DNA of 64,000 bases from a virus, in the IMG/VR virus record IMGVR_UViG_3300035492_000206, one strand, 5' to 3'. Position 1 is the first letter of the stretch. Every line of letters starts with the position of its first letter. Both the position numbers and the translations under genes were made by a program. Under the pieces are notes generated by a model that saw only the letters and a list, made by a program, of their open reading frames with translations, ran no database searches and was not told where the DNA came from. Shown here piece by piece: positions 18,204 to 45,258 of the stretch.

Positions 18204-21200
18204 ATGAAACACTCCGTCGCCTGGACCGAGCAGAACGAGCCTATCGGCCTGTCGCTCGATCAGCTCCTCTATCGTATGCGCCGCCATGACAGCCAGGATG
18301 GCCTGCTGTTTGACAGCGTTACCCTGAACGAAATCCTGCAGGAAGAAGGCGTCGAGCAGTTCGCCTTTGACGCCCTGGTATCCCCGTTTTCAAAGCTCAA
18401 GCGCAAGATGGATATCCTGTCGCGCACCATGGACCGCGCCATTGATGGCTATGGCGTGATCGCCATGCAGGTATCCGATCCGTTCAAGCGCAACGGCGTG
18501 GCTCAGGTTGCCGCCGTGTTCGAGCTGGCCGATGGTCAGACCGTGAGCGTTTACTTCCATAATCCGGACAACACCCCCGGCAAGTTGGCCCCTACTGATG
18601 AAATGATCAGCTGGAAGTGGCTGCTGAACAAGAAAGATATCACCATCGTGGTAGCCCCCGAGCGAGGCAATGACCTGCAGATTCGCGAAGTAGCACGCCG
18701 CATCATGAAGTTGGCGCAGAAGAACAGCGCTGCTTTTGCCAAGGCCAATGCCAAGCGCGCCGAACGTCTGGAGATGATCGAAGGCCTGCGCACTGAGATC
18801 AGCGATCTGGAATACGAACTGTCGGACCTGCAAGACCAGATTGAGGTTGCCAAGGTTGAGGCTGAAAGTCGCGCCATGGCCCCGTACAAGGCGGTCAAAG
18901 CGGCTGGCATGGCTGCACTGAATAGCTTCCGCAAGTTCCTGAGTCGCAGCCAGTACCGCGCCATGGTGGAAGCCATTGAGGGTGAAGAAGGTGCCGGTAT
19001 GGCTGACCGTGCCAAAGCGCTTGCGGCCATTATCGAAGGTATGGCGGCCACCTATGATCAGGACGGCAAGGGCGATAATGCCACCGTCTACCTGCATTAC
19101 TTCCAGAACAGTGCCGACTGGTTCATTACTGAAAAGGACGCTCAGGGCGGCACTCAGCAGGCCTTCGGCTATGCCGATATGGGGCAAGGCGGCGAGCTGG
19201 GTTATATCAGCATCGATGAGCTGACCAAAAACGGCGTCGAGCTGGACCTGTACTTTGATCCCAAGCCGCTCAAGGCGGTTAAGCCGTCCAGTGCCGGTAC
19301 CGATGAAGCCGAGGCCGACCTTGCGAAGGCGCATGCCGAGCTGGATGGACGCATCGATGCCCTGTCTGATGATGAAGCGCAGCGCATGGCGCAAGCTCTG
19401 GAGCTGAAGGTTGGTGCCGGTAAGGATTCGCGCGACGTGATCAAGCAGCAGCATCCTGACGATCAGCGTCGCGGGCTTGAGTTGATCGCCTCCCAGTCTG
19501 AGGCAAGCGAATCGACCGATCCCACAACCCCAGAAGGTTACGCCGCCATCATGGACGACGAGGCAGCACTGACCGCCGTTCAGGACCAGCTCGACAGCCA
19601 CTTCCAGGCGCGCATGATCGAGGTCCGCAACGCCCTGCGCGAACTGGGCTGGGAAGGCGAGCGCTTCAAAACCCTGTCGAAGAATGGCGTAGAGGCGGTA
19701 TTCGACCTGATTCAAGTGGGTGCCGGTGCCAATGTGGCCGGTATGACCATCAACGGCATCCGTGACGACCTGAGCAAAACCCCGGCAGAGTTGGCGGCTG
19801 AAGTGGATGCGCTGGCCGAGCCGGTGATCGAAATCGCCAAGTCCTACCGGAACTATGTCGACGATGCCGATGGTGATCTGTTCGAGGCGGCCAAGGCCTT
19901 TTTCAAGGCTGAGCTACAGGGCAAGGTCGTCAAGACAGTGATCGGCGATGTGCATATGACTGGTGGCGGCTTCAGGGAGATGAAGCGCGGCATGAAGTCG
20001 GATGAACTCAAGGCAAGATTGCTTCCCAGCGTGCCGGATATTCTTTCATCCGGCCGATACGACGGTCGCAGCGAGCTTCATAAGCCGCGCAACGATGGTT
20101 ATGTGGCGTTTCACTTCTTTGAGAAAGAAGTGGAGCTGGATGCCTTGATCGTAACCGCCGGGGTAAACGTCGGCGAGCGCAATGACAAGGCTCTCACCTA
20201 CACGGCATACGGTCTCGGATACGAAGGCGGAATTGGCTGGAAAAACAAAGCCGCATCCGGCGGTGTGCTCGATGCGGCTTCGTTCCGCGGGAAGGTGTTC
20301 CGAGGTCCAGGGGTGCCTAGTGAGCCAACAACCAAGCCCGGATCGACTTCCTTCCCCTTGCTCACTATGGATTCCAGTGTAGGTGCTAATGATGAAATTC
20401 TCAACCTCGTGATCCTTAAAGTGGTAGACAAGACCACAGGCGAAGAGCTGACTGAGTATGAGGATGCGCAGGAAGTCGAGCCCATAGAGTCCGACGGTAT
20501 CGAAGAAGTGCTCGATGAGCCTACAGCCGAACAGGTGCTTATCAACGACTTCTATCAAGCGATTCAGGATGAAACTGCTCACATAGAGTCTGCGATTGCA
20601 GGAATTGACTGGGATGCAATCACGGACGTGGAGACCGGCAACGAGCAGGCCGGGGCGCTACGTGATGCCGTAAAAGGGTATCAGCCTGTTGCCAAGGCGC
20701 TGGAGCAACTGGGCGCAAACGGCATCAATGACGGTAATGCGAGTCTGGCCAAGGTATTCGATTCCGATGCCTATCAGGCCAGGGATGAAGCAATGCTCAA
20801 GCTTCGCGAAACAGTCGACAGCATTCACGATCTGGGCAAAGACCGGCTGCGCAAGGCTGGCGAGGCTGAACTCGCATCATTGCCGGAAGACGCATCTCTG
20901 GAGGACGTAGCCAAAGCAATATTCCGCAAGCATGGCATTGACCTGGGTGAAGCTACGAGCGGTCGTGCGGCAGCCATAGTCGAAGGAATAGAAGAAAAGA
21001 ATGCTGAAATGCTCAGGGGCGTTCTGCTGGCAGGGAATAACCCTGCAAGCAACGAGATTTTCGAATATGCGACAGGCATCAAGCTTGCCAAAACCCAGAA
21101 GCAGCGCGGGGTTCAAATTGACGACTGGGCAGGGATCAGCGAGCAACAGCGTGCAGATATCGAAGCAGCGAAGGTCGCTGACAGGGAGGCTGAAGAGCTT

Positions 21201-22286
21201 GCCCGTGAGGTGTCGTCCGCGTGGGATGAGCTTGGGCGAAGCAGCGTGCGCAGCGAGCAGGGCATTCAGGACGGGCAACGTTATCTGATGGGGTTTGTGG
21301 ATGCAGGCGTGCGCGAAATCGGCACAGCGAAGAAGGGCGCAGCAACTGTATACGGCCTGCGCAACAACGATGGTTTGATCTCTGTAAGCGGCAAGAGCTT
21401 CAACCGCTTCCTGAAGGCGGCTACGGCTTACGGCGGCTTGATGCCTGCGCTTGAGCTGGTTGGTGCAGTAGCGACCAAAAGCCAGGAAGAAGAGGTGGCT
21501 CAGGGTGTGGGTGCTGAGGCGGTAAGCGATCCTGAGCAGGCACTGCAACAGGCGCGCGAACAAACCGATAGAGATCCAACCGATGAGCAGAAGGTAAGCG
21601 GCGACTACCAGAAGGGAGAGCTGAACGCCTTTGGCTTGACCCTGGCAATTGAAAATCCAAAGGGGCATGTCCGATCCGGCAAGAATGAAGGCGGGGACGA
21701 ATGGCAGGTAAGCATGGCGCACGACTATGGCTACATCAAGGGAACCAAAGGCCTGGACGGTGACGAAGTGGATGCTTTTATCGGCCCCAATCTCGAAAGC
21801 GAGAAGGTTTTTGTGATCGAGCAGGTGGATTCGGCGGGGGTGCTTGATGAGCACAAGGTAATGCTTGGGTTTGATGACGAAGAGAGCGCAAAACAGGGAT
21901 ACCTGTCCAGCTACAAAGCAGGCTGGGATGGTCTCGGTGCTATTCGCGAAATGAGCCTTACTGAGCTGAAAGAATGGCTGCCGACTGCCGGCGGGAAATC
22001 CATGCCTTCGCTTGAGCCTGAGCCAGCAGCTGAGCCAGAACCGGTAGAGCCTGAAGCGATGACTGAGCCTGATCAGCAAGCGGTGGAGCCCGAAAAGCAA
22101 GCTGATACCGACTACCTGCAGTCCATCATCGATCAGACCATTGCCGATCCGCTGGCGTCCGATATCGCCGATAAGCTGGGCGAAATCTTCGGTCGCAACG
22201 CCGGTGATGCCGAAATGGAAACCCTGATCGAACAGGCCGCTATGGCCTATCAAAATGCCGTCATGCAGGCCACTGCCAACCTCTAA
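18204..22286 (+). CDS. darA: DarA-family polyvalent internal head protein (DarA_N, DUF2958-like, LPD3-like, inorganic-pyrophosphatase-like, DarA_C)
   Basis: DarA_N: VFELADGQTVSVYFHNPD...MISWKWLLNKKDITIVVAPE. DUF2958-like: DWFITE..QAFGYADMG.GGELGYISIDEL..VELDLYF (~19040-19280). LPD3-like ~19880-20240. iPPase-like: IENPKG..RSG..HDYGYIKGT.G.DGDEVD..DEHKVMLGF (~21585-21980). DarA_C: DTDYLQSII... Confidence 0.85.
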   Translation: MKHSVAWTEQNEPIGLSLDQLLYRMRRHDSQDGLLFDSVTLNEILQEEGVEQFAFDALVSPFSKLKRKMDILSRTMDRAIDGYGVIAMQVSDPFKRNGVAQVAAVFELADGQTVSVYFHNPDNTPGKLAPTDEMISWKWLLNKKDITIVVAPERGNDLQIREVARRIMKLAQKNSAAFAKANAKRAERLEMIEGLRTEISDLEYELSDLQDQIEVAKVEAESRAMAPYKAVKAAGMAALNSFRKFLSRSQYRAMVEAIEGEEGAGMADRAKALAAIIEGMAATYDQDGKGDNATVYLHYFQNSADWFITEKDAQGGTQQAFGYADMGQGGELGYISIDELTKNGVELDLYFDPKPLKAVKPSSAGTDEAEADLAKAHAELDGRIDALSDDEAQRMAQALELKVGAGKDSRDVIKQQHPDDQRRGLELIASQSEASESTDPTTPEGYAAIMDDEAALTAVQDQLDSHFQARMIEVRNALRELGWEGERFKTLSKNGVEAVFDLIQVGAGANVAGMTINGIRDDLSKTPAELAAEVDALAEPVIEIAKSYRNYVDDADGDLFEAAKAFFKAELQGKVVKTVIGDVHMTGGGFREMKRGMKSDELKARLLPSVPDILSSGRYDGRSELHKPRNDGYVAFHFFEKEVELDALIVTAGVNVGERNDKALTYTAYGLGYEGGIGWKNKAASGGVLDAASFRGKVFRGPGVPSEPTTKPGSTSFPLLTMDSSVGANDEILNLVILKVVDKTTGEELTEYEDAQEVEPIESDGIEEVLDEPTAEQVLINDFYQAIQDETAHIESAIAGIDWDAITDVETGNEQAGALRDAVKGYQPVAKALEQLGANGINDGNASLAKVFDSDAYQARDEAMLKLRETVDSIHDLGKDRLRKAGEAELASLPEDASLEDVAKAIFRKHGIDLGEATSGRAAAIVEGIEEKNAEMLRGVLLAGNNPASNEIFEYATGIKLAKTQKQRGVQIDDWAGISEQQRADIEAAKVADREAEELAREVSSAWDELGRSSVRSEQGIQDGQRYLMGFVDAGVREIGTAKKGAATVYGLRNNDGLISVSGKSFNRFLKAATAYGGLMPALELVGAVATKSQEEEVAQGVGAEAVSDPEQALQQAREQTDRDPTDEQKVSGDYQKGELNAFGLTLAIENPKGHVRSGKNEGGDEWQVSMAHDYGYIKGTKGLDGDEVDAFIGPNLESEKVFVIEQVDSAGVLDEHKVMLGFDDEESAKQGYLSSYKAGWDGLGAIREMSLTELKEWLPTAGGKSMPSLEPEPAAEPEPVEPEAMTEPDQQAVEPEKQADTDYLQSIIDQTIADPLASDIADKLGEIFGRNAGDAEMETLIEQAAMAYQNAVMQATANL
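20241..20280 (-). terminator. Minus-strand intrinsic terminator inside darA
   Basis: Perfect 10-bp inverted repeat AAGCCGCATC (20248-20257) / GATGCGGCTT (20271-20280), followed on the minus strand by TGTTTTT. Confidence 0.7.
20241..20369 (-). ncRNA. Predicted ~130 nt antisense RNA inside darA
   Basis: Minus-strand promoter at 20376-20404, 8-bp 5' hairpin (20318-20325 with 20360-20367), and an intrinsic terminator at 20241-20280. The ends are predicted. Confidence 0.55.
20376..20404 (-). promoter_or_regulatory. Minus-strand sigma70 promoter inside darA
   Basis: TTGAGA (20404-20399), 17 nt spacer, TACACT (20381-20376). Confidence 0.65.
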
Positions 22287-22292
22287 GGACGA

Positions 22293-23999
22293 ATGATGAA
22301 TCTTTTTTTCGATGCTACCGAAAGTAGCAAAGCTAAATCGACGCTTGCCAGGCTCCGCCTGGTCGGCGCTTTGGCCAAGGTACGCAAAGATATCCTGGCG
22401 CTGGGTGCGGGGGCTGGCAATATTGTCCAGCGCCTGCAACTGGCCAAAGAAGCCTTGAGCCTGCGTGAGCAGCTGGGCGAGCTTGATGCACCCAACGATG
22501 TTGAATCAGATAATGAACCCGACCGGGAAGCCATTCTGGGCGTATTCAGGCAGCTTGGGCGTGACTACCCAGATCGTAGTATGTCTGTTGCAGGGAATTT
22601 GGCGGGCAGCGTGGTGGCGCTGATCCGTGAGGCAGTAGGGCGCGAGGTCATGCCAGAGGAGCTGAGGCAACTGGTCAGCATGGAGGATCGACGCGCCGCC
22701 TATCGAGAAGGCCAGCGGTCTGTCGACCCTGTCGCAAGCGCCGTTGTTGCCATGCACGATGTGATTGAGGCACAGGCTGATGTCCCTGCTGCTGTCGTGC
22801 GCGACGATATCGGAGCGGTTGACTTTATCTGGGGCGAAGAGGGCAAGGAGCCGACTGCATCCGGTAAGCGCAAAGGTGCCAAGGGTGTGGCGCATATCCT
22901 TGAGGCACGAATGCGCAAGGATGGCCTGAGCCTGGAGGAGGCTGCCGCTGTGGCAGAGGAAGTGGCAAAAGTGGTCGCTACAGGCGAGATTACACTAACC
23001 CATCACCATCAAGATGTGAGCCAAGCTACCATTACAGACGGCAAGTACTCTGCAATCATGGTGAAGCGGGAAGGTAGTAATGCATGGCTGCTGACAGGGT
23101 GGGAAGAAAATAAGGATTCCGATGCCACTGGCAAGGGGGATGACAAAACCAGCGCTACGCACTCCGGGCCTACACCTGCCCGTCCCGGAGAGGGAGCGGA
23201 ACCCTCTGATATCAATATAGCACAATCTCAGGATGAAGGTCAGCCGACCGATGAAGGCAGTGCGTCTACAATAGCTGCCCACGGCCTCGCACTGGAGGTG
23301 CCGGCCATTGATCAGCAGCTGATAGATGATTACAACCGCACGACTCATGTATTTGGTGGCCGCGACTTCAATGCAGAACTCCGCAGCGAAGCGGAAAGCC
23401 TTTTGAATGAACTGGTCGAGCGAAACCACACGCTGGATACCCCGGAGCAGCAGGCACTGGCCAAAGAGCTGATCGAATCCTACCTGCAGGCCCAAGCGGA
23501 GTTCGCGCAGTGGAATGCGCGCTTCAGCACCAGTAACCCATCTTGGATTGTGACTGGCCGCAGTGGTCGCGACATGGGCAAGTACAATCGCGCCAATGAG
23601 CGGCACATGGATGAATACACCCGGCGCGTTGACCAGTTGCAGGCCCAGCGTGACCGCATAGGCGAAACGCTCTACAAGATGCGCCCCCAAGAGGTTCAGG
23701 TAGAACAAGCACTGGGCTCGGACTTGCGCGGCATTACCCAACAGGCCGGGCATATTCTGGGTTATTTGGAGGAGGGTAAAGCCGCGCTGGTTGCGGAAAC
23801 CCGCAAATGGGCCGCACCTAAAGCGCACAAGTTGATCGAGCGCAGCCTGACTGTCGACCGTAACCGCACCCTTGAGCATATCCGCGAGCTGGAAAACTCC
23901 AAGTCCGTACAGGATGCCGGTGGTTTGGCCAAGGTGTTCGGCCCTCGCTCAAAGGCAGGCAAGCTGGTGGAGACGCTTCTGAGTGAGCCTGACTCTTGA
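22293..23999 (+). CDS. Second polyvalent head-targeted protein with a BECR/barnase-colicin-like (PBECR) nuclease domain
   Basis: N-terminal LARLRLVGAL...RLQLAKEALSLREQLG leader. DIGAVDFIWG..KGVAHILEAR..SAIMVKREGSNAWLLTGW domain (~22780-23110). SWIVTGRSG..KYNRANERH segment typical of polyvalent proteins. Confidence 0.65.
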   Translation: MMNLFFDATESSKAKSTLARLRLVGALAKVRKDILALGAGAGNIVQRLQLAKEALSLREQLGELDAPNDVESDNEPDREAILGVFRQLGRDYPDRSMSVAGNLAGSVVALIREAVGREVMPEELRQLVSMEDRRAAYREGQRSVDPVASAVVAMHDVIEAQADVPAAVVRDDIGAVDFIWGEEGKEPTASGKRKGAKGVAHILEARMRKDGLSLEEAAAVAEEVAKVVATGEITLTHHHQDVSQATITDGKYSAIMVKREGSNAWLLTGWEENKDSDATGKGDDKTSATHSGPTPARPGEGAEPSDINIAQSQDEGQPTDEGSASTIAAHGLALEVPAIDQQLIDDYNRTTHVFGGRDFNAELRSEAESLLNELVERNHTLDTPEQQALAKELIESYLQAQAEFAQWNARFSTSNPSWIVTGRSGRDMGKYNRANERHMDEYTRRVDQLQAQRDRIGETLYKMRPQEVQVEQALGSDLRGITQQAGHILGYLEEGKAALVAETRKWAAPKAHKLIERSLTVDRNRTLEHIRELENSKSVQDAGGLAKVFGPRSKAGKLVETLLSEPDS

Positions 24000-24013
24000 T
24001 GATGCTAAAGGTA

Positions 24014-24045
24014 TCGAGTGACAGGCATGGTGTCCTGTCACTCGA
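24014..24045. terminator. 12-bp perfect hairpin between convergent genes
   Basis: TCGAGTGACAGG (24014-24025) / CCTGTCACTCGA (24034-24045). No T-tract on either side. Confidence 0.55.
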
Positions 24046-24061
24046 CCGGCTATAGGCGGGA

Positions 24062-27052
24062 TCAGAGTCTTACGCTTTTGGCGCGCCCAAAGCACTCATC
24101 AATCACGAATGTGACACCATCCTGGTCTCGCAGCGATATCTCCATGCTTGCGTGCTCATCCAGACCCATTTCTGCTGCAATCCTTGGCAGCTGATCAAGC
24201 GAAGGCGACAGCATATCCCAGCAGCCGACTTTGTCGTTGGGGCGAATCTCAACATCTTCCGTTACGTGCCATTCTGCCCAATCTCGCGCCAATCCCGATT
24301 CATTCAAGGCAGGTGAATGGATCTCGAAATACAGGTTCTGATGCCGGTCATACCGGGCGCGAAATCGCACTGTTGGTTGAGGATCGTGCCGAAGATTGAA
24401 ATCGATATAGTGACGACGCGTCAGCCATGCAAGTGCTGTCTTCGATGGGGCGCACCCTGTAATAACCTGCGCTTCAGCTTCAGCCAGCATGCGTTTGGCT
24501 TGATTCTGATCATCCTGCGCCAAAGCGCACATTGCACCATTGTGACCGAACACAAGCGTAGGCGTTATAACAAGTCCTGCCGCCTGCCAGCCGCTGGCAC
24601 CGGCTAGTAGTGCGGCCATTGATTGATCGTTGTGAGTGTATATATTCGCATTGCCCGGATACCTGAAGCAGTCAGCACACCCCTTCAATGATCGAAGATT
24701 ACGATCAAGGATGGCGATATTGGGTGCCTGGACATGCAGGCGTCGATGTCGATTGACGCGCCCCGCGATCTGCACAATGGATGCCGTTGAGGACGGCTCA
24801 ATCACAGACCAGTCAAAATCATGATCGCGACCGACTTCTTCCACTGGCGTAGCCACAACTACAAAGACCAGATCTTCTTCCGGAGCCTGTCGGATCATAT
24901 GATCAAGCTCTGCATCCTGAAAGATGTGTTCGTTCCCTCGCTTGCGGTTAAAAAGCCTGTCCAGTGCGCTTTCCTTCACCCATCGGCGCAACCGGAAATC
25001 CTCAGAATGGTAAGCCGACACCCGGTAGCCTGGCTCGCTCTGCAGCCGGGTAGCTATCTCTACGCAAGGTTCGATGTTGGCAACCCGGACAACGCCGAAA
25101 GAGACGCGCTTACCTGATGGGTGCAACCATGCATGATTGTGGTGCAGTTGTTGTATTGCGGCGCTGATCGAGTGTTGAAATCTATCAATTGGCGTTTCGC
25201 CTTCAGCAACGGTCTGTATGTACGCCAAGCGATAACAGGGTTCCTGGTGTAGGTGGTCGGCAAGCCCATCAAGCCACTGCGCAATGATTGGCTCAATCTC
25301 ATCCGAAGCCCCTGTATGGCTTGAGGGTGACTGGTAGTTGTCTACCAGTGTGATATGGCAGCCTACATGCGAGTGGTGATTGATGGCGCCATGCATGTGC
25401 GCACCGGCCTCAAATGCACGCACCACTGCAGCAGCACATCCCTGCGTGAGTGTCGCGCTGGAGACGATGACGTTACACCCAAGCAGGGCCGCCATTTCAA
25501 TCAGTCGCATCACCGCACCTAGGGATTGAGGGCTGTAATTATCAATTTCATCAAGAATCAAATCACTGCCTGCCACGCGCAGAGCCGCCGTTACATGATG
25601 GCCCTGGCGACCGGGGTTACCCGCATCAATCAGGTAGTCGAGTGTGGATACCAAAAGCGGGGTCCCGAGCAGGGCGCACGTTTTTTCTTCTGAACGGCAG
25701 CCGCCGTAGGTTTCAGCCCATTCACGCACCCACTTTGGGCAAGCAGGATCCACGTTGCCACCAATCTCCCAGATCGCGCGCCCATCAGCCGTGTCGGTTT
25801 CATCCTCATCCTCGTCCACAGCGCCAAGCTTTGCACGCGTGGTGTCGTGTGCCGCCTTCAGAAAGGCATCCCCCATTACGGTTGCTACTTGCTGCCTGGG
25901 CAGGCCAAGGTCTGCGCAAATCGCTTCACCCGTTTGCAGCGTAAGCGAGCGCAAGTTCAGGCCAATAGATATGCGTAACGGCGCTTCTGGTGCTGTCATT
26001 GCATCGGCTATCATCAGGTTGGCGCGCGTCTTCCCCGTGCCGGTGGACGCTGCGTTCAGTACAAGGCGGGGAGTGTTTCGCTGTTCGGGATGCTCATATT
26101 GCGAACGGATATGGTTGACCGCGTCCCGCTGCCAGGCAAAGCGAGATTCAGTACTGTCGCCATGTAGGCGTGCGCGCGCAGCGGTCGAAAGACCTGCAAG
26201 CCCTTCAATTTTGGCCAGCTTTTCTACCCAGCTGGCGGCTTCCTGACCAACGTGCTCAAGATGCCAGTCCAGCGGCTGATCAAGTTTACGCCCGACCCCG
26301 TTATTATTCGGTTTGGTGTTGGCATACAGGCGGTCACTCATGCTATCCACGATTAAGTCACCAGCCATTGAGCGGCTGGACACCTGATGATCTGCGGCAA
26401 TCAGAGCCATTCGGACTATCATGCCCAAACCCTTCCAGTAAGGCGCTTGCTGGTGTTCTTGCGCGGGCAGGTCCGCATCAATACGCTGAAGCACATCCCA
26501 GAGCGCGCTTTCAAGGCTTTCAGGGAAGCCCTGCGTATCGGACGGCATTTGCTTAAACGCATCGACTGGCTGATCGATGAATGGCCTGACATGCGTCTCC
26601 GCCATGGGAATGACCGATCTGTCTTTGTGGCTTGATCGCGCCGTTGGCCCCAACAAGCCGTGGTGTGTCATTACAGCAAAATCGACAACATCGTCAGCCT
26701 TGCATACGGGCGCGACAACAGTCTGCTTAATCATCCGATGGCCCTGCTGCAGGGGCTGCATAAATGCAGGTAGCCGCTCTATGCCATCATCCGCCATTAC
26801 GTGCCAAGCATCCTTCAATGTGGGCGGCGGGGCGGCATTGCCTGCATCGGCACTTTTCTGCCAGGCGCGCATCATGCCTCGCCATGTTTCCAGTACCCGC
26901 ACCGAGATCCACTCATGCCGGATTCGGTCACCACTCAATGCAGACTGCTGTCCACGCAGCTTTTCTTGGAAATGCACAGTGGCTTTCCCAATGTCATGGC
27001 TCAAGCCTGCCGCGCGAGCCAGGAGTGAGGCGAGGTTGGCCCAGCTATTCAT
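24062..27052 (-). CDS. cas3: Type I-F Cas3 HD-nuclease/helicase lacking the N-terminal Cas2 domain
   Basis: LSHDIGKA at residues 17-24, THHG, AADHQVS, ASTGTGKTRAN, LILDEIDNY, SSATL, VVATPVEEVGRDHDFDW and QIAGRVNRHR. Confidence 0.93.
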   Translation of the reverse strand: MNSWANLASLLARAAGLSHDIGKATVHFQEKLRGQQSALSGDRIRHEWISVRVLETWRGMMRAWQKSADAGNAAPPPTLKDAWHVMADDGIERLPAFMQPLQQGHRMIKQTVVAPVCKADDVVDFAVMTHHGLLGPTARSSHKDRSVIPMAETHVRPFIDQPVDAFKQMPSDTQGFPESLESALWDVLQRIDADLPAQEHQQAPYWKGLGMIVRMALIAADHQVSSRSMAGDLIVDSMSDRLYANTKPNNNGVGRKLDQPLDWHLEHVGQEAASWVEKLAKIEGLAGLSTAARARLHGDSTESRFAWQRDAVNHIRSQYEHPEQRNTPRLVLNAASTGTGKTRANLMIADAMTAPEAPLRISIGLNLRSLTLQTGEAICADLGLPRQQVATVMGDAFLKAAHDTTRAKLGAVDEDEDETDTADGRAIWEIGGNVDPACPKWVREWAETYGGCRSEEKTCALLGTPLLVSTLDYLIDAGNPGRQGHHVTAALRVAGSDLILDEIDNYSPQSLGAVMRLIEMAALLGCNVIVSSATLTQGCAAAVVRAFEAGAHMHGAINHHSHVGCHITLVDNYQSPSSHTGASDEIEPIIAQWLDGLADHLHQEPCYRLAYIQTVAEGETPIDRFQHSISAAIQQLHHNHAWLHPSGKRVSFGVVRVANIEPCVEIATRLQSEPGYRVSAYHSEDFRLRRWVKESALDRLFNRKRGNEHIFQDAELDHMIRQAPEEDLVFVVVATPVEEVGRDHDFDWSVIEPSSTASIVQIAGRVNRHRRLHVQAPNIAILDRNLRSLKGCADCFRYPGNANIYTHNDQSMAALLAGASGWQAAGLVITPTLVFGHNGAMCALAQDDQNQAKRMLAEAEAQVITGCAPSKTALAWLTRRHYIDFNLRHDPQPTVRFRARYDRHQNLYFEIHSPALNESGLARDWAEWHVTEDVEIRPNDKVGCWDMLSPSLDQLPRIAAEMGLDEHASMEISLRDQDGVTFVIDECFGRAKSVRL

Positions 27053-27942
27053 GACGTTATGGCCTCCATGCTCACAGCCACCGGATCAATGCAGTCAGAT
27101 GTGACCGCTTTGGGTTGCAGGTGGCGCTGCCGAAAATGGAATAGCGACGCATCATCCAACAGGATGCGGTTCTGGCTATCCAGGCCAAGCTCGCGGCGGG
27201 CAGCCAGTGACTGGTCAGGCGTCATCTTGGGGTTCAGTGAGACGACATACCAGCGGCCCGTCGCACGGCCAATGCCTGAATCTTTGATTGCGTCAATCTG
27301 CAGCTGAATGCTTGGCGTGATCGAGAGGGGGCGAAGTTCGAGCATGCGGAAAAGAACAAATTGCTTTAGAGGGGCGGTTAGTACGTCTTGAGCATCAAAT
27401 TCATCAAAGTCATACCCGGTTACTAGCAGTTGATCAGCAATGCGATGCAATGCGACCGGGTAGATGCATCGCCACCGCGCCTGATCATTCTTTTTCCTGC
27501 CTACATAGCGCACCGAGAAGGCTTTTTTGTGCACCATTGCGTGAAGCAGGGGGGTGTAATCGACCTCATCAGGGAGGCGCTGCGCCCGAATCTTGCCGTA
27601 CTGAACGCTGAGGCTTCCCACAACGCCTGGCGCATCATCAATATCAAGCCCAGCCTGCAGCCGTGTGATGGGGCTAAACAGGATCTCATTCAGGATGGAG
27701 TTGGCGCTGTTCGGGTCTCGTGTATCCAGGGCGACATAACTATGGGGCCGGTAGCAGCGTTTGTCCTGATAAATCAAGTTGCTGTAGGCCGAGCACATCT
27801 GATTGAGAAGGCGATACTTCGTTGCAGCCGAGCCCTCACTGATGCCGTCCAGATCACTTCGGCGGAACTGACCGGTGTGGATTGTCCGGCGCAAAACGTA
27901 GCGTTCGATCATGTCCTGTTGGTAGATAGTTGCAGATGACAA
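27049..27942 (-). CDS. WYL-domain transcriptional regulator (BrxR/CapW-like)
   Basis: LLHAMVHKKAFSVRYVG...RCIYPVALH...LLVTGYD...QFVLFRM is the WYL core. SLNPKMTPDQ..ARRELGL is a CapW-like C-terminus. TTG start with GAGGAG SD. ATGA-coupled to cas3. Confidence 0.75.
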   Translation of the reverse strand: MSSATIYQQDMIERYVLRRTIHTGQFRRSDLDGISEGSAATKYRLLNQMCSAYSNLIYQDKRCYRPHSYVALDTRDPNSANSILNEILFSPITRLQAGLDIDDAPGVVGSLSVQYGKIRAQRLPDEVDYTPLLHAMVHKKAFSVRYVGRKKNDQARWRCIYPVALHRIADQLLVTGYDFDEFDAQDVLTAPLKQFVLFRMLELRPLSITPSIQLQIDAIKDSGIGRATGRWYVVSLNPKMTPDQSLAARRELGLDSQNRILLDDASLFHFRQRHLQPKAVTSDCIDPVAVSMEAITS

Positions 27943-28017
27943 GTTCCAATCTCCTCAAAAAGATAATTCACTTAAAACCATAGAGTTAAATATATATCAA
28001 AATGAAAAATAAAAGAA

Positions 28018-28046
28018 TTGCCACAGGATGAAAATAACTCTAGTCT
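28018..28046 (+). promoter_or_regulatory. Putative sigma70 promoter of the csy operon in the AT-rich divergent spacer
   Basis: TTGCCA (28018-28023), 17 nt spacer, TAGTCT (28041-28046). Confidence 0.55.
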
Positions 28047-28111
28047 AGTGCTCATCGAACAAGCAACGGGAGGATGGCGCGGAGTCATGGACACCAGCGC
28101 CGGGCAAAAGA

Positions 28112-29239
28112 ATGAAAAACTCAGAGCAGCAAAGCGCGCTATCCAACTGGATACTGGACAACCTGGTGCATTTCTCGAACAAGCTCACAAACTCAAACGC
28201 ACCGGGGGGCGGTATTCGGCTGTCAGGCATACAGGCCCTTGACCTGCCTTACGTGAGTGCACGAACGCACCTGCACGACATCAACCGTAAAGCGACCGGG
28301 GCACTTATTGAGCTGGATTACGTAAAGCCCACAAATATCCGGATGAAGGATGTTCGGGTATGCCTGGGCGAGGAAGTCATCAACCCGCCAGAGCTTGATC
28401 TTGCTAAGGATCAGATGAGCGAAGTTGCCGGTGTGTACTTGGATGCAGCATCAGGCCGGCATCCCTGCAAAGTTGCCGACCCGAAGGCACAGACTTTGTC
28501 GCGGCTGAAGCAGATTCTATTGCCACTACCTGAGGATGAGGCTTATTTGGCGGTAAGCCCGCTCAGTGCAGCAGGCATGGCAAAGCTGCTCAATGACACC
28601 TACGCCGCGCGCTTCGACCAGAGCGAGCAGGGCGACAATGGAAAAGGCTTGATCCCCAGGGTGCGTTCATTTCCCTATGGCGGAGACAAGCCGCAGAACG
28701 TGGGCTCTCGCGTCAATGAAGGCTTGAGCCGTCCATTCGTGTTTGATCGCGTGCCCCGTGAAAATGATGACCTGAAATACGCGCATCGCCTGTTTTATCG
28801 TGGCCTAACCTTGCGACTGCCTAAAGCGCTAATCATGGACTACAAGTCATTCCTCGACAGCGTGCGCAGAGAAGGGCGCGACTTGAAGGTATGGCCTGCC
28901 TCGCTCAAGCGTGCAGAGCGTGCCTATCTGCAGCCTCTATGGGGGAGCTGGGAGAATCAGGCCAGAAAGGCTAGGCGCGTACTGGAAGAACACGCAGCTT
29001 CACTGCCGGATTCAAATCCCGCATGGCATGGCGAGACCGAAGAAGCCCGGTTTCAGGCTGGGTGGTTGATGCCTTCAGCGCGAGGGCATGAGTGGAAGAA
29101 ACAAGCAGCTCGCCGATTTGCCAGCCTGCTTTCAGCCAGTCGTGTCGCTGCCGGGCGTGACGGCGAGTCTGGACGGATCGCGTTGAGCCCTACCGATCAG
29201 CACCGCGTTGCCAGTGCAGTCCTGGAGGGCTTCAGATGA
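28112..29239 (+). CDS. csy1: Cas8f (Csy1), divergent
   Basis: KQILLPLPEDEAYLAVSPLSAAG and YGGDKPQNVG motifs. First gene of the csy operon. Confidence 0.82.
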   Translation: MKNSEQQSALSNWILDNLVHFSNKLTNSNAPGGGIRLSGIQALDLPYVSARTHLHDINRKATGALIELDYVKPTNIRMKDVRVCLGEEVINPPELDLAKDQMSEVAGVYLDAASGRHPCKVADPKAQTLSRLKQILLPLPEDEAYLAVSPLSAAGMAKLLNDTYAARFDQSEQGDNGKGLIPRVRSFPYGGDKPQNVGSRVNEGLSRPFVFDRVPRENDDLKYAHRLFYRGLTLRLPKALIMDYKSFLDSVRREGRDLKVWPASLKRAERAYLQPLWGSWENQARKARRVLEEHAASLPDSNPAWHGETEEARFQAGWLMPSARGHEWKKQAARRFASLLSASRVAAGRDGESGRIALSPTDQHRVASAVLEGFR

Positions 29240-30120
29240 ACAAGCGTTATCTATTGCTTCCACGACTGGATGTGCAGCGCGCAAACGCAATGGTGACTGC
29301 GGGTGTGATCTCACTATGTCCTGTCATGCCAGCAGTGCTCATGGGCGAGGCTTTCGGACATGCAACAGGTGCGTTCCCAGAAGGGGTGATGCTTGTCCAC
29401 CATGACGCTTACCTGCTGGCTGATCAAAGCCTTGACCAAGCCCGACCGGGTGGCACTGAGTACTATCCGCATCAATTCCGGGGCGCGACAGCGTTCAACG
29501 GTAAAGATATAGCGGGTGGTGACAAGAAAACACCATCCAACTCGATCCAGCCAACGGCCAGCATGAATGGCACCTGGTCAGTGATCATGTCATTCGACGC
29601 AGATCAGATTGATGCCGACAGTCTGCTGTCAGCCGCAACGCAATTTCTTGGACGTATGGCACGGCTTGCCGGTGGCGTGATTACACACTTTGAAAAGCCT
29701 CAGGTGCAAGATGATCTGGCGGGTATTCTTGCTGCATGCCGAAGTGGTTTTGTGGCTATCGACCGGTCGCCTTGGCTGGTATCGGACACACAGACGCGCA
29801 TCGAGCGTTTGCTGGCGCACACCGATGGAAGCGTTCAGCCCGAGCATCAGGGAAGGCGTCGCTGGCTGGTCCCGGCTGCTCTGGGGTATGCCCTGCTAAC
29901 AGATCCTGTCGATACGGCTGGCGCGCGTAATGGCTTGCCCCATGCGTTCGCAGAAGTGCTCCTGGGGTTGGTGGAGCTGGTCAGCATCCGGCAAACATCC
30001 GCTTTCCCCACGCAAAACGAAACACAGGATATAACACTGATTGAATCATGCTTTTGGCGGCAAAACTGGCCAACACAAGACGTTTTTTTATTGAATCAAG
30101 AGGAGCCCAGCAATGGCTAA
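29236..30120 (+). CDS. csy2: Cas5f (Csy2)
   Basis: LLLPRLDVQRANA, RLAGGVI, WLVPAALGYALL, RNGLPHAFAE.LLGLVE. Confidence 0.88.
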   Translation: MNKRYLLLPRLDVQRANAMVTAGVISLCPVMPAVLMGEAFGHATGAFPEGVMLVHHDAYLLADQSLDQARPGGTEYYPHQFRGATAFNGKDIAGGDKKTPSNSIQPTASMNGTWSVIMSFDADQIDADSLLSAATQFLGRMARLAGGVITHFEKPQVQDDLAGILAACRSGFVAIDRSPWLVSDTQTRIERLLAHTDGSVQPEHQGRRRWLVPAALGYALLTDPVDTAGARNGLPHAFAEVLLGLVELVSIRQTSAFPTQNETQDITLIESCFWRQNWPTQDVFLLNQEEPSNG

Positions 30121-31186
30121 AGTAATGGCAAAACTACCCGGTGTAACCAGCTTCACCCGTCGCAGTGTGATCAGCGATGGCGCATTTTACAGTCTTGTTG
30201 ACGGGGTTGAAGTACCCCTGCCGGTTGTGCGTCACGGAATTCGTGGCACTCAGAACATCAATAACACAAAGGAGCGCGAACCCTCGCAGATCCAGGTAAC
30301 TGAAACAGCGCGCACAGAAGTGAATGCCGACGCCTTCCTGGTGCGGTTCAATCTGCGCTTTCTGCCGCTACAAGAAGGCTTGCACGCGTGTGCGGTCAAT
30401 AAGCAGACCGACAAGGCGTTAACAGAGGCGCTGCGGGCGCAATACGAGGCATTCGTGAGCGCTGCCCGCAACAGTGATGGCTTGGCTGAGGTGTCTCTTC
30501 GCACCGCGCGGAATATCCTCAATGGTCGCTGGCTCTGGCGCAACCGTAGCCTGGGCGAAGCAATCGAGATCAGCGCCAGTACGCAGGACAAGCGCATAAA
30601 CATAGACGGGTTTGATGCGCTTGAGCTGCCGCTGAATGCCTTTGGCGATTACACCCGTGAAGAGCAGCAGCTGGGTGACTACATTCAGCACATGCTTCAG
30701 GGCGAAGCCACTGGCGGCATGACGATTGAAGCGCGCGTAAGCCTTGGGTTCACGGGATCGGTCGAAGTATTCCCCTCGCAGAACTATGTGTCCAAAAAGC
30801 CCAAAGGCTTTGCCCGGCCACTGTATAAGCTGGGAGTGGCCGACAAGTCGCGCACGTTTACTACCGCTGATGACATGCTGGATTACAGTGATATTCGGCG
30901 CATAGGGCAGGCTGCACTGCGTGACCAGAAGATTGGCAATGCGCTGCGCACCATTGATACCTGGTATCCAGACGCGCAGGCGCATGGCTATCGCCCGATT
31001 CCGGTTGAGCCAGAAGGTGCAAACTTGGACTCAATGTCCATGCTGCGCAAGCACAAAGGCGCAAACAGCCCGTCTGCATTTGCACTGGCAACGCGCATGG
31101 CCGAGCTTGACCCAAACAGCGCAGACGGCATGTTCCTGATCGCTGCCTTGATGCGTGGCGGCGTATATGGCGAAGCAGGCGAATAA
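30113..31186 (+). CDS. csy3: Cas7f (Csy3)
   Basis: VRHGIRGTQN, NILNGRWLWRN, EVFPSQ and QKIGNALRTIDTWY. Confidence 0.95.
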   Translation: MAKVMAKLPGVTSFTRRSVISDGAFYSLVDGVEVPLPVVRHGIRGTQNINNTKEREPSQIQVTETARTEVNADAFLVRFNLRFLPLQEGLHACAVNKQTDKALTEALRAQYEAFVSAARNSDGLAEVSLRTARNILNGRWLWRNRSLGEAIEISASTQDKRINIDGFDALELPLNAFGDYTREEQQLGDYIQHMLQGEATGGMTIEARVSLGFTGSVEVFPSQNYVSKKPKGFARPLYKLGVADKSRTFTTADDMLDYSDIRRIGQAALRDQKIGNALRTIDTWYPDAQAHGYRPIPVEPEGANLDSMSMLRKHKGANSPSAFALATRMAELDPNSADGMFLIAALMRGGVYGEAGE

Positions 31187-31216
31187 TGAGGCCCTTGAAA
31201 AGAACGGAGGAAGCCG

Positions 31217-31810
31217 GTGCCCAGCTGGCGTCGGCGACACATGATGAAGCACTACATGGATATTCGATTGATACCTTCCGCAGGCATGACGCCCCCAACA
31301 CTGGCGGCAGAGGTGGTCAAGAAAGTACATGCATGCCTTCAGGTACACCCTGGTGCCATCGCGCTCGCACTGCCTGAGTGCGCAGCCGGACCGGATCGCA
31401 AGATCGGCACGCTGGTCAGGTTATTTGCCACGGACGCAAGTCACTTGAATGCGACTGCAGACGAAATTGAGGCACATAAGGCAATCAGTGGCATGGCGGT
31501 TCCAACGCGTATCCGCGAAGTACCCGCCGAGACTACACGGTGGGTAGCATACACGCGTTTCAGGCTGCCAAATCGACGCCGACAGGCCAAAGACACCGAT
31601 GCCTTTGCAGTCAGGCGGCAGCAGCTACGCGCCGAGCGCATGGCGGTCATCGACACACTGCCCACGCTGTATATGTCATCTGCCACCAATGGGCATCGCT
31701 ATGGCATGGGTATTCAGGTGGTGGAGTGCGACCATGCGTCACCACAGGGCACTCTTAATGGTTACGGACTATCCAGTCAATCAAGCCCGTTCTGGCTACC
31801 GATGGTATGA
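31217..31810 (+). CDS. cas6f: Cas6f (Csy4) crRNA endonuclease
   Basis: HYMDIRL...VKKVH (catalytic His), Arg-rich helix, LYMSSATNGHRY and C-terminal GTLNGYGLS. Start is GTG 31217 or ATG 31241. Confidence 0.9.
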   Translation: MPSWRRRHMMKHYMDIRLIPSAGMTPPTLAAEVVKKVHACLQVHPGAIALALPECAAGPDRKIGTLVRLFATDASHLNATADEIEAHKAISGMAVPTRIREVPAETTRWVAYTRFRLPNRRRQAKDTDAFAVRRQQLRAERMAVIDTLPTLYMSSATNGHRYGMGIQVVECDHASPQGTLNGYGLSSQSSPFWLPMV

Positions 31811-31944
31811 CGTACCCAAAAAAAACGACCAAGGTGCAACTCAATGATATCAGTGCGTTTTTTCAGGGTGTGTTTTTTATGGGTAAATTGGCGGGAGGAC
31901 CGATTGCGCTTGTGTAATCACGGCCTTATAGTGAAATCGCTGTA
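31811..31944 (+). promoter_or_regulatory. CRISPR leader with its own sigma70 promoter
   Basis: A and T tracts as in I-F leaders. TTGCGC (31904-31909), 17 nt spacer, TATAGT (31927-31932), ending 12 nt before repeat 1. Confidence 0.7.
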
Positions 31945-32452
31945 CTTCACCGCCGTGTAGGCGGCTTAGAAATCGAAACCATGCGTCTGCGATCTCCTGC
32001 CGGTCTTCACCGCCGTGTAGGCGGCTTAGAAACCTGTCTGGCACCTTCTCGCTTGATTCAGCCCCTTCACCGCCGTGTAGGCGGCTTAGAAATGAGATGG
32101 GACACCCTCAAGGCGGGGCCTTACCTTCACCGCCGTGTAGGCGGCTTAGAAAATACGCGCCTGCGTCTCTGCGGCTTGCTCCAGCTTCACCGCCGTGTAG
32201 GCGGCTTAGAAAGTTCCAGCGTGGTTTCATCAAGCCGGACGTTCCTTCACCGCCGTGTAGGCGGCTTAGAAAAGCATCGATTTAGCACCGCTTCTTGCGG
32301 CATCCTTAACCGCCGTGTAGGCGGTTTAGAAATCGCAGAGCGCACGCAGGCTGTTGAGGCTTGCTTTCACCGCCGCGTAGGCGGTTTAGAAAAACGAGAA
32401 GGCCGAAGTGGGTATCAACCTGCACTTCACCGCCGCATAGGCGGATTACTTG
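31945..32452 (+). CRISPR. Type I-F CRISPR array: 9 repeats (28 bp, CTTCACCGCCGTGTAGGCGGCTTAGAAA) and 8 spacers of 32 bp
   Basis: Exact 60-bp period, repeats starting at 31945, 32005 ... 32425. Repeats 1-6 are identical and 7-9 progressively degenerate. CCGCC-GTGTA-GGCGG hairpin typical of Cas6f substrates. Confidence 0.98.
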
Positions 32453-32709
32453 CAGGTAGTTGAATGCAGGTCATGACTGGCCTGCATAGCCTGCCAGCTC
32501 TCGGGGGTTGTACCGGTCATGGCGGCAATGCTGCCCGCCAATCCGACATCGCACGGCACGTTACCGCCAATGAATGCTTGCAGGAGTGCAGCATCAACAG
32601 CCATCTGCCGGGATGCTTCGGTCAAGCTCAAGCCCAGCGGGTCGAGTACGTCAGCCTTGAGCGCAATGCCAGGATGAACCGGCTTGCGGGTACGAATGCG
32701 ATTATTCAT
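32446..32709 (-). CDS. higA: HigA-family HTH antitoxin (orphan)
   Basis: PVHPGIALKADVLDPLGLSLTEASRQM...GTTPESWQAMQASHDL is the HigA signature. Confidence 0.85.
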   Translation of the reverse strand: MNNRIRTRKPVHPGIALKADVLDPLGLSLTEASRQMAVDAALLQAFIGGNVPCDVGLAGSIAAMTGTTPESWQAMQASHDLHSTTCK

Positions 32710-32912
32710 ATTTCGAGATCCTTGAATAGCGCGTTGGCACTGTCAAACCGCTTCCCTATGCCGGATTCCAGCTCATCCATCGCGCAAACGGTGATTGCGG
32801 CTGGAGTCTGCGGAGTATCGGCTGAGAATGACCGGGACGGCTGGCGTTCACCACGGTGAATTTCGTCCATCCGCTGCACGCTTTCCATCAGGTCATCAAA
32901 AAAACGGCTCAT
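32706..32912 (-). CDS. Chimeric antitoxin-like peptide (HTH-antitoxin-type N-terminus, RelB/DinJ-type C-terminus)
   Basis: MSRFFDDLMESVQRMDEIHRGERQPSR joined to PAAITVCAMDELESGIGKRFDSANALFKDLEI. ATG at 32912, ATGA-coupled to higA. Confidence 0.55.
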   Translation of the reverse strand: MSRFFDDLMESVQRMDEIHRGERQPSRSFSADTPQTPAAITVCAMDELESGIGKRFDSANALFKDLEI

Positions 32913-32946
32913 GGCAGTTAGCTCTTTTGCGATCGTATGAAGCCAT

Positions 32947-32975
32947 AGTGTATGCACCAGGCGAGAAACAGGCAA
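32947..32975 (-). promoter_or_regulatory. Sigma70 promoter of the antitoxin pair
   Basis: TTGCCT (32975-32970), 17 nt spacer, TACACT (32952-32947). Confidence 0.65.
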
Positions 32976-33011
32976 TGGGACGATTTGCACCCCTGATCTG
33001 GTTTGTTAACC

Positions 33012-33052
33012 GGAAACTCCCCACCTTCAAAGCCATGGCGCTGGCGCACAAT
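33012..33052 (+). promoter_or_regulatory. Putative phage late promoter (GGAAA-N30-CACAAT) for the portal operon
   Basis: GGAAA at 33012, CACAAT at 33047. Confidence 0.65.
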
Positions 33053-33059
33053 CAGCGTC

Positions 33060-34601
33060 ATGGCTACCAAATCCAAAACGCAGCGACGCGGCATATTCTC
33101 CTCTCTGTTCGGCGGCAATACCAAAGCTTACACAGACGAGACAGCGTCAGCGAGCGACATTAAACAGTCGGATACCACCCTATACGGCGCGGGCATGACC
33201 ACGGTCGCCAGTTTGATGGCGTCCGGAAATCGCAAGGCTCGCACCCGTCAAGCCATCTATGACCAATGGTCGATGATGGAGGCGAACCCGATTGTATCCA
33301 CGTCCGTTCAACTGCTGGTGACAGCTGCGCTGGGCGGGCATGAGACCAACGGTAGCCTGGTGTTCATCGAGGAGCGGCCCGGATTCAACGACGATCAGAA
33401 AATGTCGGATTTGGTGCGTGAAGTGCGGGACGACCTTTCCGATCTGTTCAATGCAGTGGCGTTTCAGGTGGCGTATCTTGGGGCTAACTTTGGCGATGCC
33501 TACGCGCGCGTTTACAGCGAAGACAAAAAGGGTGTTGTCGACCTGTACGTGGGTGAAATGATCCGTCCGCCGCTGGTGCAGCCATTCGAGCGCGGCTCCC
33601 GCACGGTGGGCTTTGCGGTCTACACCGGTGAGAAGAACTTTCAGCGCCTCGATAAAACCCAGATGGTGCGCATGAAGATGCCGCGCACGCAATGGATTCC
33701 CCAGCACGGCGTGGTCGAAAAGTCGCTGAAACTTGCGCTTGAAGAGGACAATATCGACAACCTGCCGCTTATGCCCGCCATGGCCGGCGGTTCGCTGCTT
33801 TATGCTGCCGAAGAGCCCTATAACAACCTGGTGTCGAGCCTGCTGGGGCTGGTGGGCCAGCGCTGGATGGACTCCATCGATGAGCAGATGCTTACTGTCA
33901 ACCTGAATGACATGAGCAAGGCGCACCAGAAAAAGTTCATCGAATCGATCACGGCAATGCTCAAGCGCTCGAAAGAAGTGGCTGAGGATGCGGTTAAGGG
34001 TGGACGCCCAATCCTGGAGCGCATTCGGCACGTCATCCCTGTGTTCGGTGACAAGCAGCTCACGACTATTCAGGCGCCCAACGGTGGCCAACCGGGCCGC
34101 GCGGCCAATATCGGCATCGAAGACATCATGCTGCATGCGCGATTGCTGGCCGGTGCGCTGGGTGTCGATCTATCCATGGTCGGCTTTGCTGATCAGATGA
34201 GCGGCGGCTTGGGGGAGGGCGGCTTCTTCCGTACCAGTGCCCAAGTGGCTGAGCGCGCGCGCGTCATCCGCGTAGCCCTGTCCGAATTCTTCAATCACGT
34301 CATCGACATTCACACGCTGAAGAAATACGGCGTTGTGATCCCTGCATCCGAGCGGCCTTGGCAGATCAATTTCTTCGGCTCCATATCGGCGCTTGAGGCC
34401 GAGAAGCAGCGCACCCGCTCCGAAGGCATGAGTGTGGGCTTGATGCTGATTCAGGCCATTCAGCAGCTCAAGGATATGGGTGTCAGTGAGGAGATGGCAG
34501 CCAACTACCTGACTGACCTGATGCAGCTGGATGAAGAGCAGGCCAAGCTGTATGCAAAAACCGTTGCGGCACCGAAGGATGACGATGATGGGTATGTTTG
34601 A
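33060..34601 (+). CDS. Portal protein, P1 Prt-like
   Basis: GIEDIMLHARLLAGALGVDLSMVGFADQMSGGLGEGGFFRT matches the P1 Prt motif as I recall it. ATG at 33060. Confidence 0.85.
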   Translation: MATKSKTQRRGIFSSLFGGNTKAYTDETASASDIKQSDTTLYGAGMTTVASLMASGNRKARTRQAIYDQWSMMEANPIVSTSVQLLVTAALGGHETNGSLVFIEERPGFNDDQKMSDLVREVRDDLSDLFNAVAFQVAYLGANFGDAYARVYSEDKKGVVDLYVGEMIRPPLVQPFERGSRTVGFAVYTGEKNFQRLDKTQMVRMKMPRTQWIPQHGVVEKSLKLALEEDNIDNLPLMPAMAGGSLLYAAEEPYNNLVSSLLGLVGQRWMDSIDEQMLTVNLNDMSKAHQKKFIESITAMLKRSKEVAEDAVKGGRPILERIRHVIPVFGDKQLTTIQAPNGGQPGRAANIGIEDIMLHARLLAGALGVDLSMVGFADQMSGGLGEGGFFRTSAQVAERARVIRVALSEFFNHVIDIHTLKKYGVVIPASERPWQINFFGSISALEAEKQRTRSEGMSVGLMLIQAIQQLKDMGVSEEMAANYLTDLMQLDEEQAKLYAKTVAAPKDDDDGYV

Positions 34602-45236: not shown

Positions 45237-45258
45237 TCTTAGCGCTTTGCGCTTTGCT

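Follow-up and report, generated by a model that had tools for sequence, protein, structure and literature searches.

Type I-F CRISPR unit at the darB locus of a temperate myovirus, with guides matching the darB allele of sibling phages

The window analysed here is a stretch of 64,000 nucleotides (nt) from the IMG/VR virus record IMGVR_UViG_3300035492_000206. It carries, in place of the gene for the anti-restriction protein DarB, a type I-F CRISPR unit with its cas genes. Positions 31945–32452 form a regular array of nine 28-nt repeats and eight 32-nt spacers with a period of 60 nt. The consensus repeat (CTTCACCGCCGTGTAGGCGGCTTAGAAA) and the spacers have the hallmarks of type I-F, namely a 28-nt length, a 5-bp stem closed by a 5-nt loop, a 3′ end (TTAGAAA) that provides the 5′-handle, and 32-nt spacers; the repeat hairpins have a folding energy of about −10 kcal/mol. 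The last spacer, spacer 8 (32393–32424, plus strand), reads NEKAEVGINL in frame 1. An earlier sequence-only reading of this DNA had described the spacer in these terms and had pointed to a similar motif, NKKAEVGINLH, in phage P1 DarB. Both statements were confirmed, the first by the nine-repeat array and direct reading of frame 1, the second by the presence of IICNKKAEVGINLHRGT in P1 DarB. This segment immediately precedes a QRNGRG block and is on that ground assigned to motif V of superfamily 2 (SF2) helicases.

The assignment of spacer 8 to the trailer end, which makes it the oldest spacer, follows from the position of the cas8f-cas5f-cas7f-cas6f operon and an AT-rich leader, both upstream on the strand of the array, from the TTAGAAA handle at the repeat ends and from the degeneracy of the last repeat. 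The leader occupies the segment between cas6f and repeat 1 (31811–31944, plus strand) and differs from the leader of two related stretches: G001, the only match to a search of IMG/VR with Csy3 (Cas7f), and L099, from another metagenome. Decay of the terminal repeat (32425–32452, plus strand) is confined to its final 8 nt and leaves the 5-bp stem and 5-nt loop recognized by Cas6f intact. The known cleavage site of I-F repeats leaves the decayed part beyond it. Since the hairpin is intact and the decay lies past that site, a 60-nt CRISPR RNA (crRNA) with spacer 8 can be excised. Spacer 8 is identical (32/32) in the arrays of G001 and L099. No second copy with three or fewer mismatches was found in the window, nor in 100 shuffles.

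A short-query blastn search with spacer 8 retrieved darB of P1, P7 and many P1-like plasmids (28/32 identities), as well as the gene of a 2151-aa hypothetical protein from a megaplasmid of Ideonella dechloratans (29/32, with a 5′-CC flank). The Ideonella protein, which aligns to P1 DarB with E values of 8e-69 and 3e-64 and has N6-methylase and SNF2 domains, is classified on these grounds as a true P1 DarB homologue. In hundreds of records the matches of 28–31/32 lie in darB or DarB-like genes. With a codon-degenerate pattern, the motif V site was located in 53 contigs of IMG/VR and in 32 species genomes, the majority from Burkholderiales, Nitrosomonas, Rhodocyclales and various Gammaproteobacteria, while a stricter pattern, degenerate (N) only at positions unpaired in the guide-target duplex, found it in two metagenome contigs. 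The best matches (31/32) are in contigs G003 (mismatch at position 12) and G002 (position 21) and in a Luteimonas metagenome-assembled genome (position 15), and in all three the site follows a GCC codon that places CC on its 5′ side. The sequence-only reading had anticipated protospacers in darB-like SNF2 genes, not in unrelated ones, with a 5′-CC protospacer adjacent motif (PAM) supplied by an alanine codon. Both expectations proved correct: the best matches, including the one in Ideonella, fall at motif V of such genes, and the CC precedes 51 of the 67 distinct sites. The seed is also intact in 41 of these 51, among which 38 show no more than two mismatches at paired positions. A CC PAM likewise accompanies the best match of each of the five distinct spacers, in the window and related arrays, for which a target was identified.

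All mismatches to spacer 8 are at codon third positions. In I-F complexes, guide positions 6, 12, 18, 24 and 30 are flipped out and do not pair. The protospacer begins in frame behind GCC, which brings every other codon third position onto one of these five; this widens the reach of the guide. The site in P1 darB is a poor target since it is flanked by GC instead of CC and one of its four mismatches (28/32) is at seed position 4.

The contig G003 (IMG/VR; 67,001 bp, with terminal repeats) provides a close point of comparison. It is collinear with the window at 85–96% DNA identity, many of its proteins are 97–100% identical to those of the window, and the integrases are 100% identical over 411 of 422 residues. 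The single large difference between the two lies between the gene of a DarA-like protein and the portal gene. G003 has at this place an intact 2161-aa DarB (N6_Mtase, SNF2-rel_dom and Helicase_C domains) and a 136-aa open reading frame (ORF), whereas the window has a 10.5-kb cassette (22490–33006) in place of the DarB body and the small ORF (G003 1364–8056). The targeted gene has the attributes of DarB: a product of about 2200 aa, an N6-adenine methylase joined to an SNF2/SF2 helicase, and homology to P1 DarB. The blastn breakpoints (window 22014–22489 against G003 8535–8057, and window 33007 against G003 1363) show that homology between the two continues 66 codons into darB. The order DarA-like gene, DarB-like gene, small ORF, portal gene is found in both G003 and the Ideonella prophage. 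The left neighbour of the slot, a polyvalent protein gene with DarA_N, LPD3 and InPase domains (18204–22286, plus strand), is syntenic in both; the right neighbour (33003–34601, plus strand) codes for a portal protein homologous to P1 Prt (phrog_1497, 3.5e-168). When searched by tblastn with P1 DarB and two DarB-like proteins, the window returned only the spacer itself and an N-terminal leader of 54–66 aa, and G003 DarB matched only this leader in the closed genome of 71,772 bp (see below). The absence of darB from the window and the location of the CRISPR-Cas unit where darB would be, both put forward in the sequence-only reading, are thus borne out, and the complete genome, named there as a check, lacks darB too. 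By analogy, the conserved N-terminal leader of the target DarB, likened to the capsid signal of P1 DarB (PMC9024508), may point to a protein packaged in the capsid that would protect incoming DNA from type I restriction. A comparison of the window (19817–22013) with G001 and G003 shows that the C-terminal cargo of the DarA-like protein also differs among siblings, being LPD3 and InPase in the window and a ddrB-ParB domain in G003. By these sequence comparisons the region around the darB slot is a hot spot of module exchange.

Spacer 8 is not the only guide that matches the sibling allele. Spacer 6 (32273–32304, plus strand), antisense to the N-terminal leader of darB, is a second guide against it: its site in G003 (8201–8232) has mismatches at positions 6, 15, 21 and 30, a CC PAM, and lies 144 nt outside the swap junction. 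The homologous stretch in the window itself (22314–22345, minus strand) has eight mismatches, one of them at seed position 4, and its 5′ flank is CA, not CC. A second variant of the array, found in G001 and L099, ends with the copy of spacer 8 already mentioned. G001 spacer 4 matches codons 1290–1300 of G003 darB and G001 spacer 5 matches the sibling portal gene 185 nt outside the swap junction, both with a CC PAM. At the portal site that corresponds to the latter protospacer, siblings carry CC, while the window (33192–33223, plus strand) and G001 itself are flanked by CG and mismatched at seed position 3, two synonymous changes. An array contig with G001-type repeats from data set X5 adds a spacer that matches, with a CC PAM, G003 3568–3599 (L103 3566–3599) in antisense to darB codons 1552–1562. 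It and the site of spacer 8 are about 180 nt apart, a clustering that resembles primed acquisition. The four distinct spacers that match G003 all do so within 7.1 kb of its 67 kb. In the closed genome of the carrier, none of the eight window spacers has a self-target with fewer than eight mismatches. Self-targeting by guides against relatives more than 85% identical thus appears to be avoided through synonymous changes of PAM and seed in this genome.

Window spacer 4 (32153–32184) and G001 spacer 8 (L002 11886–11917), the one further spacer common to the two array variants, are the same except for positions 12 and 24, both unpaired in I-F complexes. The confinement of differences to these positions fits selection on the paired ones; the chance that both would fall there is about 0.02. 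For spacers 1–7 no credible target was found in phage and plasmid collections or in five darB-bearing virus records, the site of spacer 6 having been placed by a local scan of G003, and spacers 1, 2 and 4 had no credible target in IMG/VR when N was allowed at unpaired positions. In 27 further IMG/VR stretches whose I-F repeats are similar, the spacers did not match this phage family. A distant darB-bearing relative (L127, IMGVR_UViG_3300027710_000070) has a one-spacer I-F mini-array on the reverse strand at about position 3396. It consists of a leader rich in AT, one repeat with its 32-nt spacer, a degenerate repeat and a hairpin that resembles a terminator; the stretch examined has no cas genes.

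The genes of the effector complex form one operon (28112–31810, plus strand) composed of cas8f (28112–29239), cas5f (29236–30120), cas7f (30113–31186) and cas6f (31217–31810), identified by Pfam, NCBIfam and PADLOC matches. Cas8f (Csy1) and Cas5f (Csy2) were recognized by PADLOC (1.2e-23 and 1.1e-22, respectively), Cas7f by the Csy3 profile TIGR02566 (6.4e-67) and Cas6f by the Csy4 profile TIGR02563 (7.8e-15), the last two above cut-off. The cas ORFs are intact in both array variants and cas7f is, judged from a ratio of non-synonymous to synonymous changes (pN/pS) of 0.15 relative to G001, under purifying selection. On the minus strand, an ORF at 24062–27052 codes for a Cas3f HD nuclease-helicase (PADLOC 5.8e-169) that lacks the Cas2 domain: it covers positions 104–914 of the 1110 of TIGR02562, the alignment starts at Cas3f residue 2 and the score (540.5) is below the cut-off of 565.95 for the Cas2-Cas3 fusion. 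The usual position of cas1 is taken by a 297-aa ORF (27049–27942, minus strand) without a Cas1 match in Pfam, NCBIfam, PADLOC or PHROGs; the genome is otherwise syntenic with G003, which has no cas genes. The ORF is 99.7% conserved in G001 and has a weak Pfam WYL match (E 1.2e-3, below the family cut-off), from which a regulator role is possible. By its gene content the CRISPR unit is an I-F interference module only, devoid of Cas1 and Cas2.

Three further ORFs belong to the exchanged region. A 568-aa protein in the darB slot (22293–23999, plus strand) is a fusion of the DarB-type 66-aa N-terminal leader to a cargo that resembles a PBECR1 nuclease (Pfam); over the first 66 aa it shares 85% identity with the beginning of G003 DarB. 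In P1, DarB residues 1–30 are the capsid-targeting signal (PMC9024508) and, by analogy, the retained leader probably still directs the PBECR1 cargo into the phage head. Between the array and the portal gene the cassette has a toxin-antitoxin-like pair (32446–32990, minus strand) composed of an 87-aa HigA-family antitoxin (32446–32709, minus strand; TIGR02607, E 1.3e-13, above cut-off) and an overlapping upstream partner of 94 aa without a family match (32706–32990, minus strand). A plus-strand ORF at 32464–32859 was rejected as a gene, its pN/pS being 1.09 versus 0.25 for the minus-strand ORF.

The window codes for the C-terminal part of the terminase, tail sheath, baseplate, portal, the DarA_N polyvalent protein, integrase, RecE/RecT-like proteins and a diversity-generating retroelement. 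A 64.6-kb metagenome contig, 100% and 99.8% identical to the window, bridges its two ends, which closes the genome into a circle of 71,772 bp. The 7.8 kb that lie outside the window encode cI, cro, DnaT, P and NinB, together with the first part of a terminase gene that contains an intein. From this gene content the carrier is a temperate myovirus, of which the window represents most of the genome. Its morphogenesis genes are only distantly P1-like (DarA-like protein and P1-type portal) and its early genes are of the cI/cro/P (lambda-like) type. The 28% identity of the portal to P1 Prt, together with the integrase and the cI/cro/P/NinB-type genes, places it outside Punavirus. Portal matches among isolates were to P1-like phages and a few others, the closest being Xanthomonas phage Rb1 (61%), beside whose portal gene no darB was found. 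Megablast of 24 kb of the window matched no isolated phage and, among plasmids, only one stretch, of 74% identity, in Ideonella. The intein of the large terminase (849 aa; window 2–1693 and L115 6928–9477), inside whose gene the window starts, has Hom_end_hint and LAGLIDADG domains. The retroelement (44184–47299) comprises a target-like FGE-sulfatase-type gene (44184–45236), bAvd (45313–45795) and a reverse transcriptase (46073–47299); its region is syntenic with the Ideonella prophage, where there are two Avd genes.

Comparison of the window with G001 bears on the mobility of the cassette. Between 22.5 and 30.5 kb the two are 99.4–100% identical, whereas their backbones are 80–90% identical; the flanks, too, have raised identity (94.7% and 95.8%). 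On the right, the high identity of the cassette ends within cas7f, at about 30.7 kb of the window. Beyond this break G001 differs in its cas6f and its leader and has five leader-side repeats of a different type (CTTCACTGCCGCGTAGGCAGCTCAGAAA); the resulting hybrid arrays are located at 11436–12073 of L002 (G001) and 11196–11826 of L099. Because of the contrast between cassette and backbone identity, the breakpoint in cas7f and the foreign repeats, we conclude that arrays and parts of the cassette have been exchanged by recombination among siblings.

In sequencing runs the cassette was present in tar-pit samples, the likely source, as well as in gas-well, hydrocarbon and wastewater samples, and the darB of G003 in shale-gas, wastewater, sludge and soil samples. 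Data sets X5/X6 and X17 contain both forms, with X5 and X17 each showing a spacer 8 array contig and separate darB contigs. The contigs of X5, X17, X26 and X27 were compared over G003 3500–4100. A G to A change at position 3811, which turns the CC PAM into CT and the codon GCC into the synonymous GCT, was present in all darB contigs of X5 and in most of the depth of X17, while CC is retained in X26 and X27, in neither of which the cassette was detected. A CT PAM in the samples where both forms co-occur is suggestive of escape.

These data lead us to consider it likely that the temperate phage uses its interference-only I-F unit, which stands where darB would be, against siblings that carry darB. 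With spacers that match the near-identical G003, and in a carrier free of the protospacers, the unit gives the impression of a weapon against close relatives. In the proposed course of events, the array would be transcribed from the leader and its transcript cleaved by Cas6f at the repeat hairpins, and the processed 60-nt crRNA, made of the UUUAGAAA handle, spacer 8 and the hairpin, would be loaded into the Csy complex. When a sibling superinfects the lysogen or co-infects the cell, the complex would recognize the 5′-CC beside the darB motif V site; an R-loop would form, Cas3f would be recruited and the sibling DNA degraded. Spacer 6 would act likewise at the darB leader. The phage would itself be spared because its darB body is gone and the homologous stretches that it shares with siblings have lost the PAM and carry seed mismatches. 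In a unit without Cas1 and Cas2, new spacers would probably come from a host I-F adaptation module or from recombination between arrays. Expression, interference and the timing of interference are inferred. The sequence-only proposal that spacer 8 is directed at sibling P1-like phages is supported for siblings of the carrier's own lineage; that lineage is only distantly P1-like, and P1 darB would be a poor target.

Several observations weigh against this use of the unit. No perfect (32/32) protospacer was found outside arrays, six of the eight window spacers are without an identified target and the cassette was seen in no RNA run. The activity of the trimmed I-F module, with no Cas1 or Cas2 and with a Cas3f devoid of the Cas2 domain, is assumed from the intact ORFs. 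The link between PAM and co-occurrence compares the contigs of two runs with those of two others and, as CT is found at 7 of the 67 sites overall, may reflect lineage instead of escape. The host was not found either: the best species genome was a Halomonas with 71% DNA identity, and nothing closer came up among about 400 genomes of an order-level sample.

The position of spacer 8 at the trailer end beside a decaying repeat, in a cassette without adaptation genes, also agrees with another history, namely that the unit was captured from a bacterial chromosome whose array already had spacers against this phage family, acquired as host immunity, and that spacer 8 is an inherited relic which no longer serves the phage. 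The import by G001 of a cas6f, a leader and five repeats of another type indicates that arrays can be swapped as blocks, as such a history would have it. However, spacer 8 remained identical over 32/32 nt in two variants although the repeat that precedes it differs at two positions, the other shared spacer differs only at unpaired positions 12 and 24, and the newer, window-specific spacer 6 also matches the sibling allele. The changes of PAM and seed in the carrier's own homologous copies, the intact cas ORFs and the purifying selection on cas7f likewise speak against a relic, and the origin of a spacer does not settle its present function. We regard this explanation as unlikely. That the guide is aimed at unrelated DarB-bearing elements such as plasmids, conjugative elements and true P1 phage-plasmids, and not at siblings, is less probable still. 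The motif is widely conserved across Proteobacteria and hundreds of enterobacterial P1-like plasmids match at 28–29/32, but the closest matches are on contigs that share the DarA-like/DarB/portal synteny of the window, P1 has the GC flank and the seed mismatch, and other spacers match leader and portal sequences specific to siblings. Chance as the reason why a 32-nt spacer resembles a conserved helicase motif can be rejected. The protein-level match is by itself weak (11 aa, E about 1.5 in a small search), yet matches of 31/32 nt with the predicted PAM occur in several independent contigs, the mismatches are all at codon third positions, and four further spacers map to the same locus.

The use of the unit against darB-bearing siblings can also be extended, as a tentative and rather improbable possibility, to a homing element. 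Guides would cut the darB allele and both of its borders, and repair from the carrier would copy the cassette into the sibling, an RNA-guided allelic drive. In the fuller form of this proposal, to which we likewise give a low probability, the phage RecE/RecT would assist repair and the HigA-like pair would stabilize the cassette, so that darB phages would become cassette carriers. The arrangement of guides on the rival allele and 144 nt and 185 nt outside its two junctions speaks for such an element, as do the near identity of the cassette in window and G001, the raised identity of its flanks relative to the divergent backbones, and the presence of RecE/RecT-like proteins in the phage and of a toxin-antitoxin-like pair within the cassette. 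The same mosaic pattern is, however, produced by ordinary recombination and selection, Cas3 degrades DNA processively, making loss of the target genome the default outcome, and a conversion event was not observed.

Virus-borne CRISPR arrays directed against related viruses are known from the mini-arrays of the archaeal viruses SPV1 and SPV2 and from the CRISPR-Cas systems of huge phages (PMC11656645, PMC7162821). The window resembles them in that spacers match close relatives, the carrier is without protospacers and exclusion of competitors from the same cell is the presumed function. Unlike the SPV mini-arrays, which borrow host Cas proteins, this is a 72-kb temperate proteobacterial myovirus with a complete I-F interference module of its own and, in contrast to both precedents, the unit sits in the locus of the targeted gene and a near-isogenic targeted sibling is available. 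The Vibrio phage ICP1 carries CRISPR-Cas of type I-F in a variable conflict locus that holds Odn in other strains (PMC9040626, PMC10161043). The parallel is a phage I-F system in a locus otherwise filled by a conflict gene, Odn in ICP1 and DarB here. ICP1 is nevertheless lytic, keeps Cas1 and Cas2-3 and targets the host-borne satellite PLE, whereas the phage of the window is temperate, lacks Cas1 and Cas2 and would act on siblings.

The anti-restriction system of P1 includes DarA and DarB (PMC9024508, PMC5512222). The target studied here is a true DarB homologue with an almost identical motif V, it retains an N-terminal leader comparable to the capsid-targeting signal of P1 DarB, and it is adjoined by a DarA_N protein and a P1-type portal. 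The phage differs from P1 by the lack of DNA similarity, a GC content of 57–58%, the presence of an integrase and early genes of lambda type; in its lineage darA lies next to darB, and P1 darB is without the PAM. In T-even phages, homing endonuclease genes and marker exclusion rely on a nuclease in one allele that cuts the alternative allele of co-infecting relatives. A nuclease system in one allele, aimed at the other, and flanking homology for repair are common to both cases; recognition here would be RNA-guided, the nuclease is Cas3 and homing is a proposal. No report of a phage CRISPR that both replaces and targets darB was found in the literature. The participation of virus-borne CRISPR in conflicts between viruses is already known; what appears new in the sequence data is the replacement of darB combined with guides against it.

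The case for phage-borne CRISPR acting on other phages has mostly rested on spacers that match, in metagenomes, viruses that are distant or unknown. The present pair is near-isogenic and differs by one cassette, with guides that fall on the other allele and on both of its borders. Placement of the guide on a conserved motif, with unpaired sixth positions at codon third positions, can cover a wide range of relatives. The locus presents a trade-off between anti-restriction, provided by DarB, and presumed action against competitors, provided by CRISPR-Cas and a nuclease cargo. The pair opens testable questions on the function of a trimmed I-F system and its gain of spacers, and on CRISPR cutting as a driver of cassette spread. 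If true, homing would represent a natural CRISPR allelic drive among phages.
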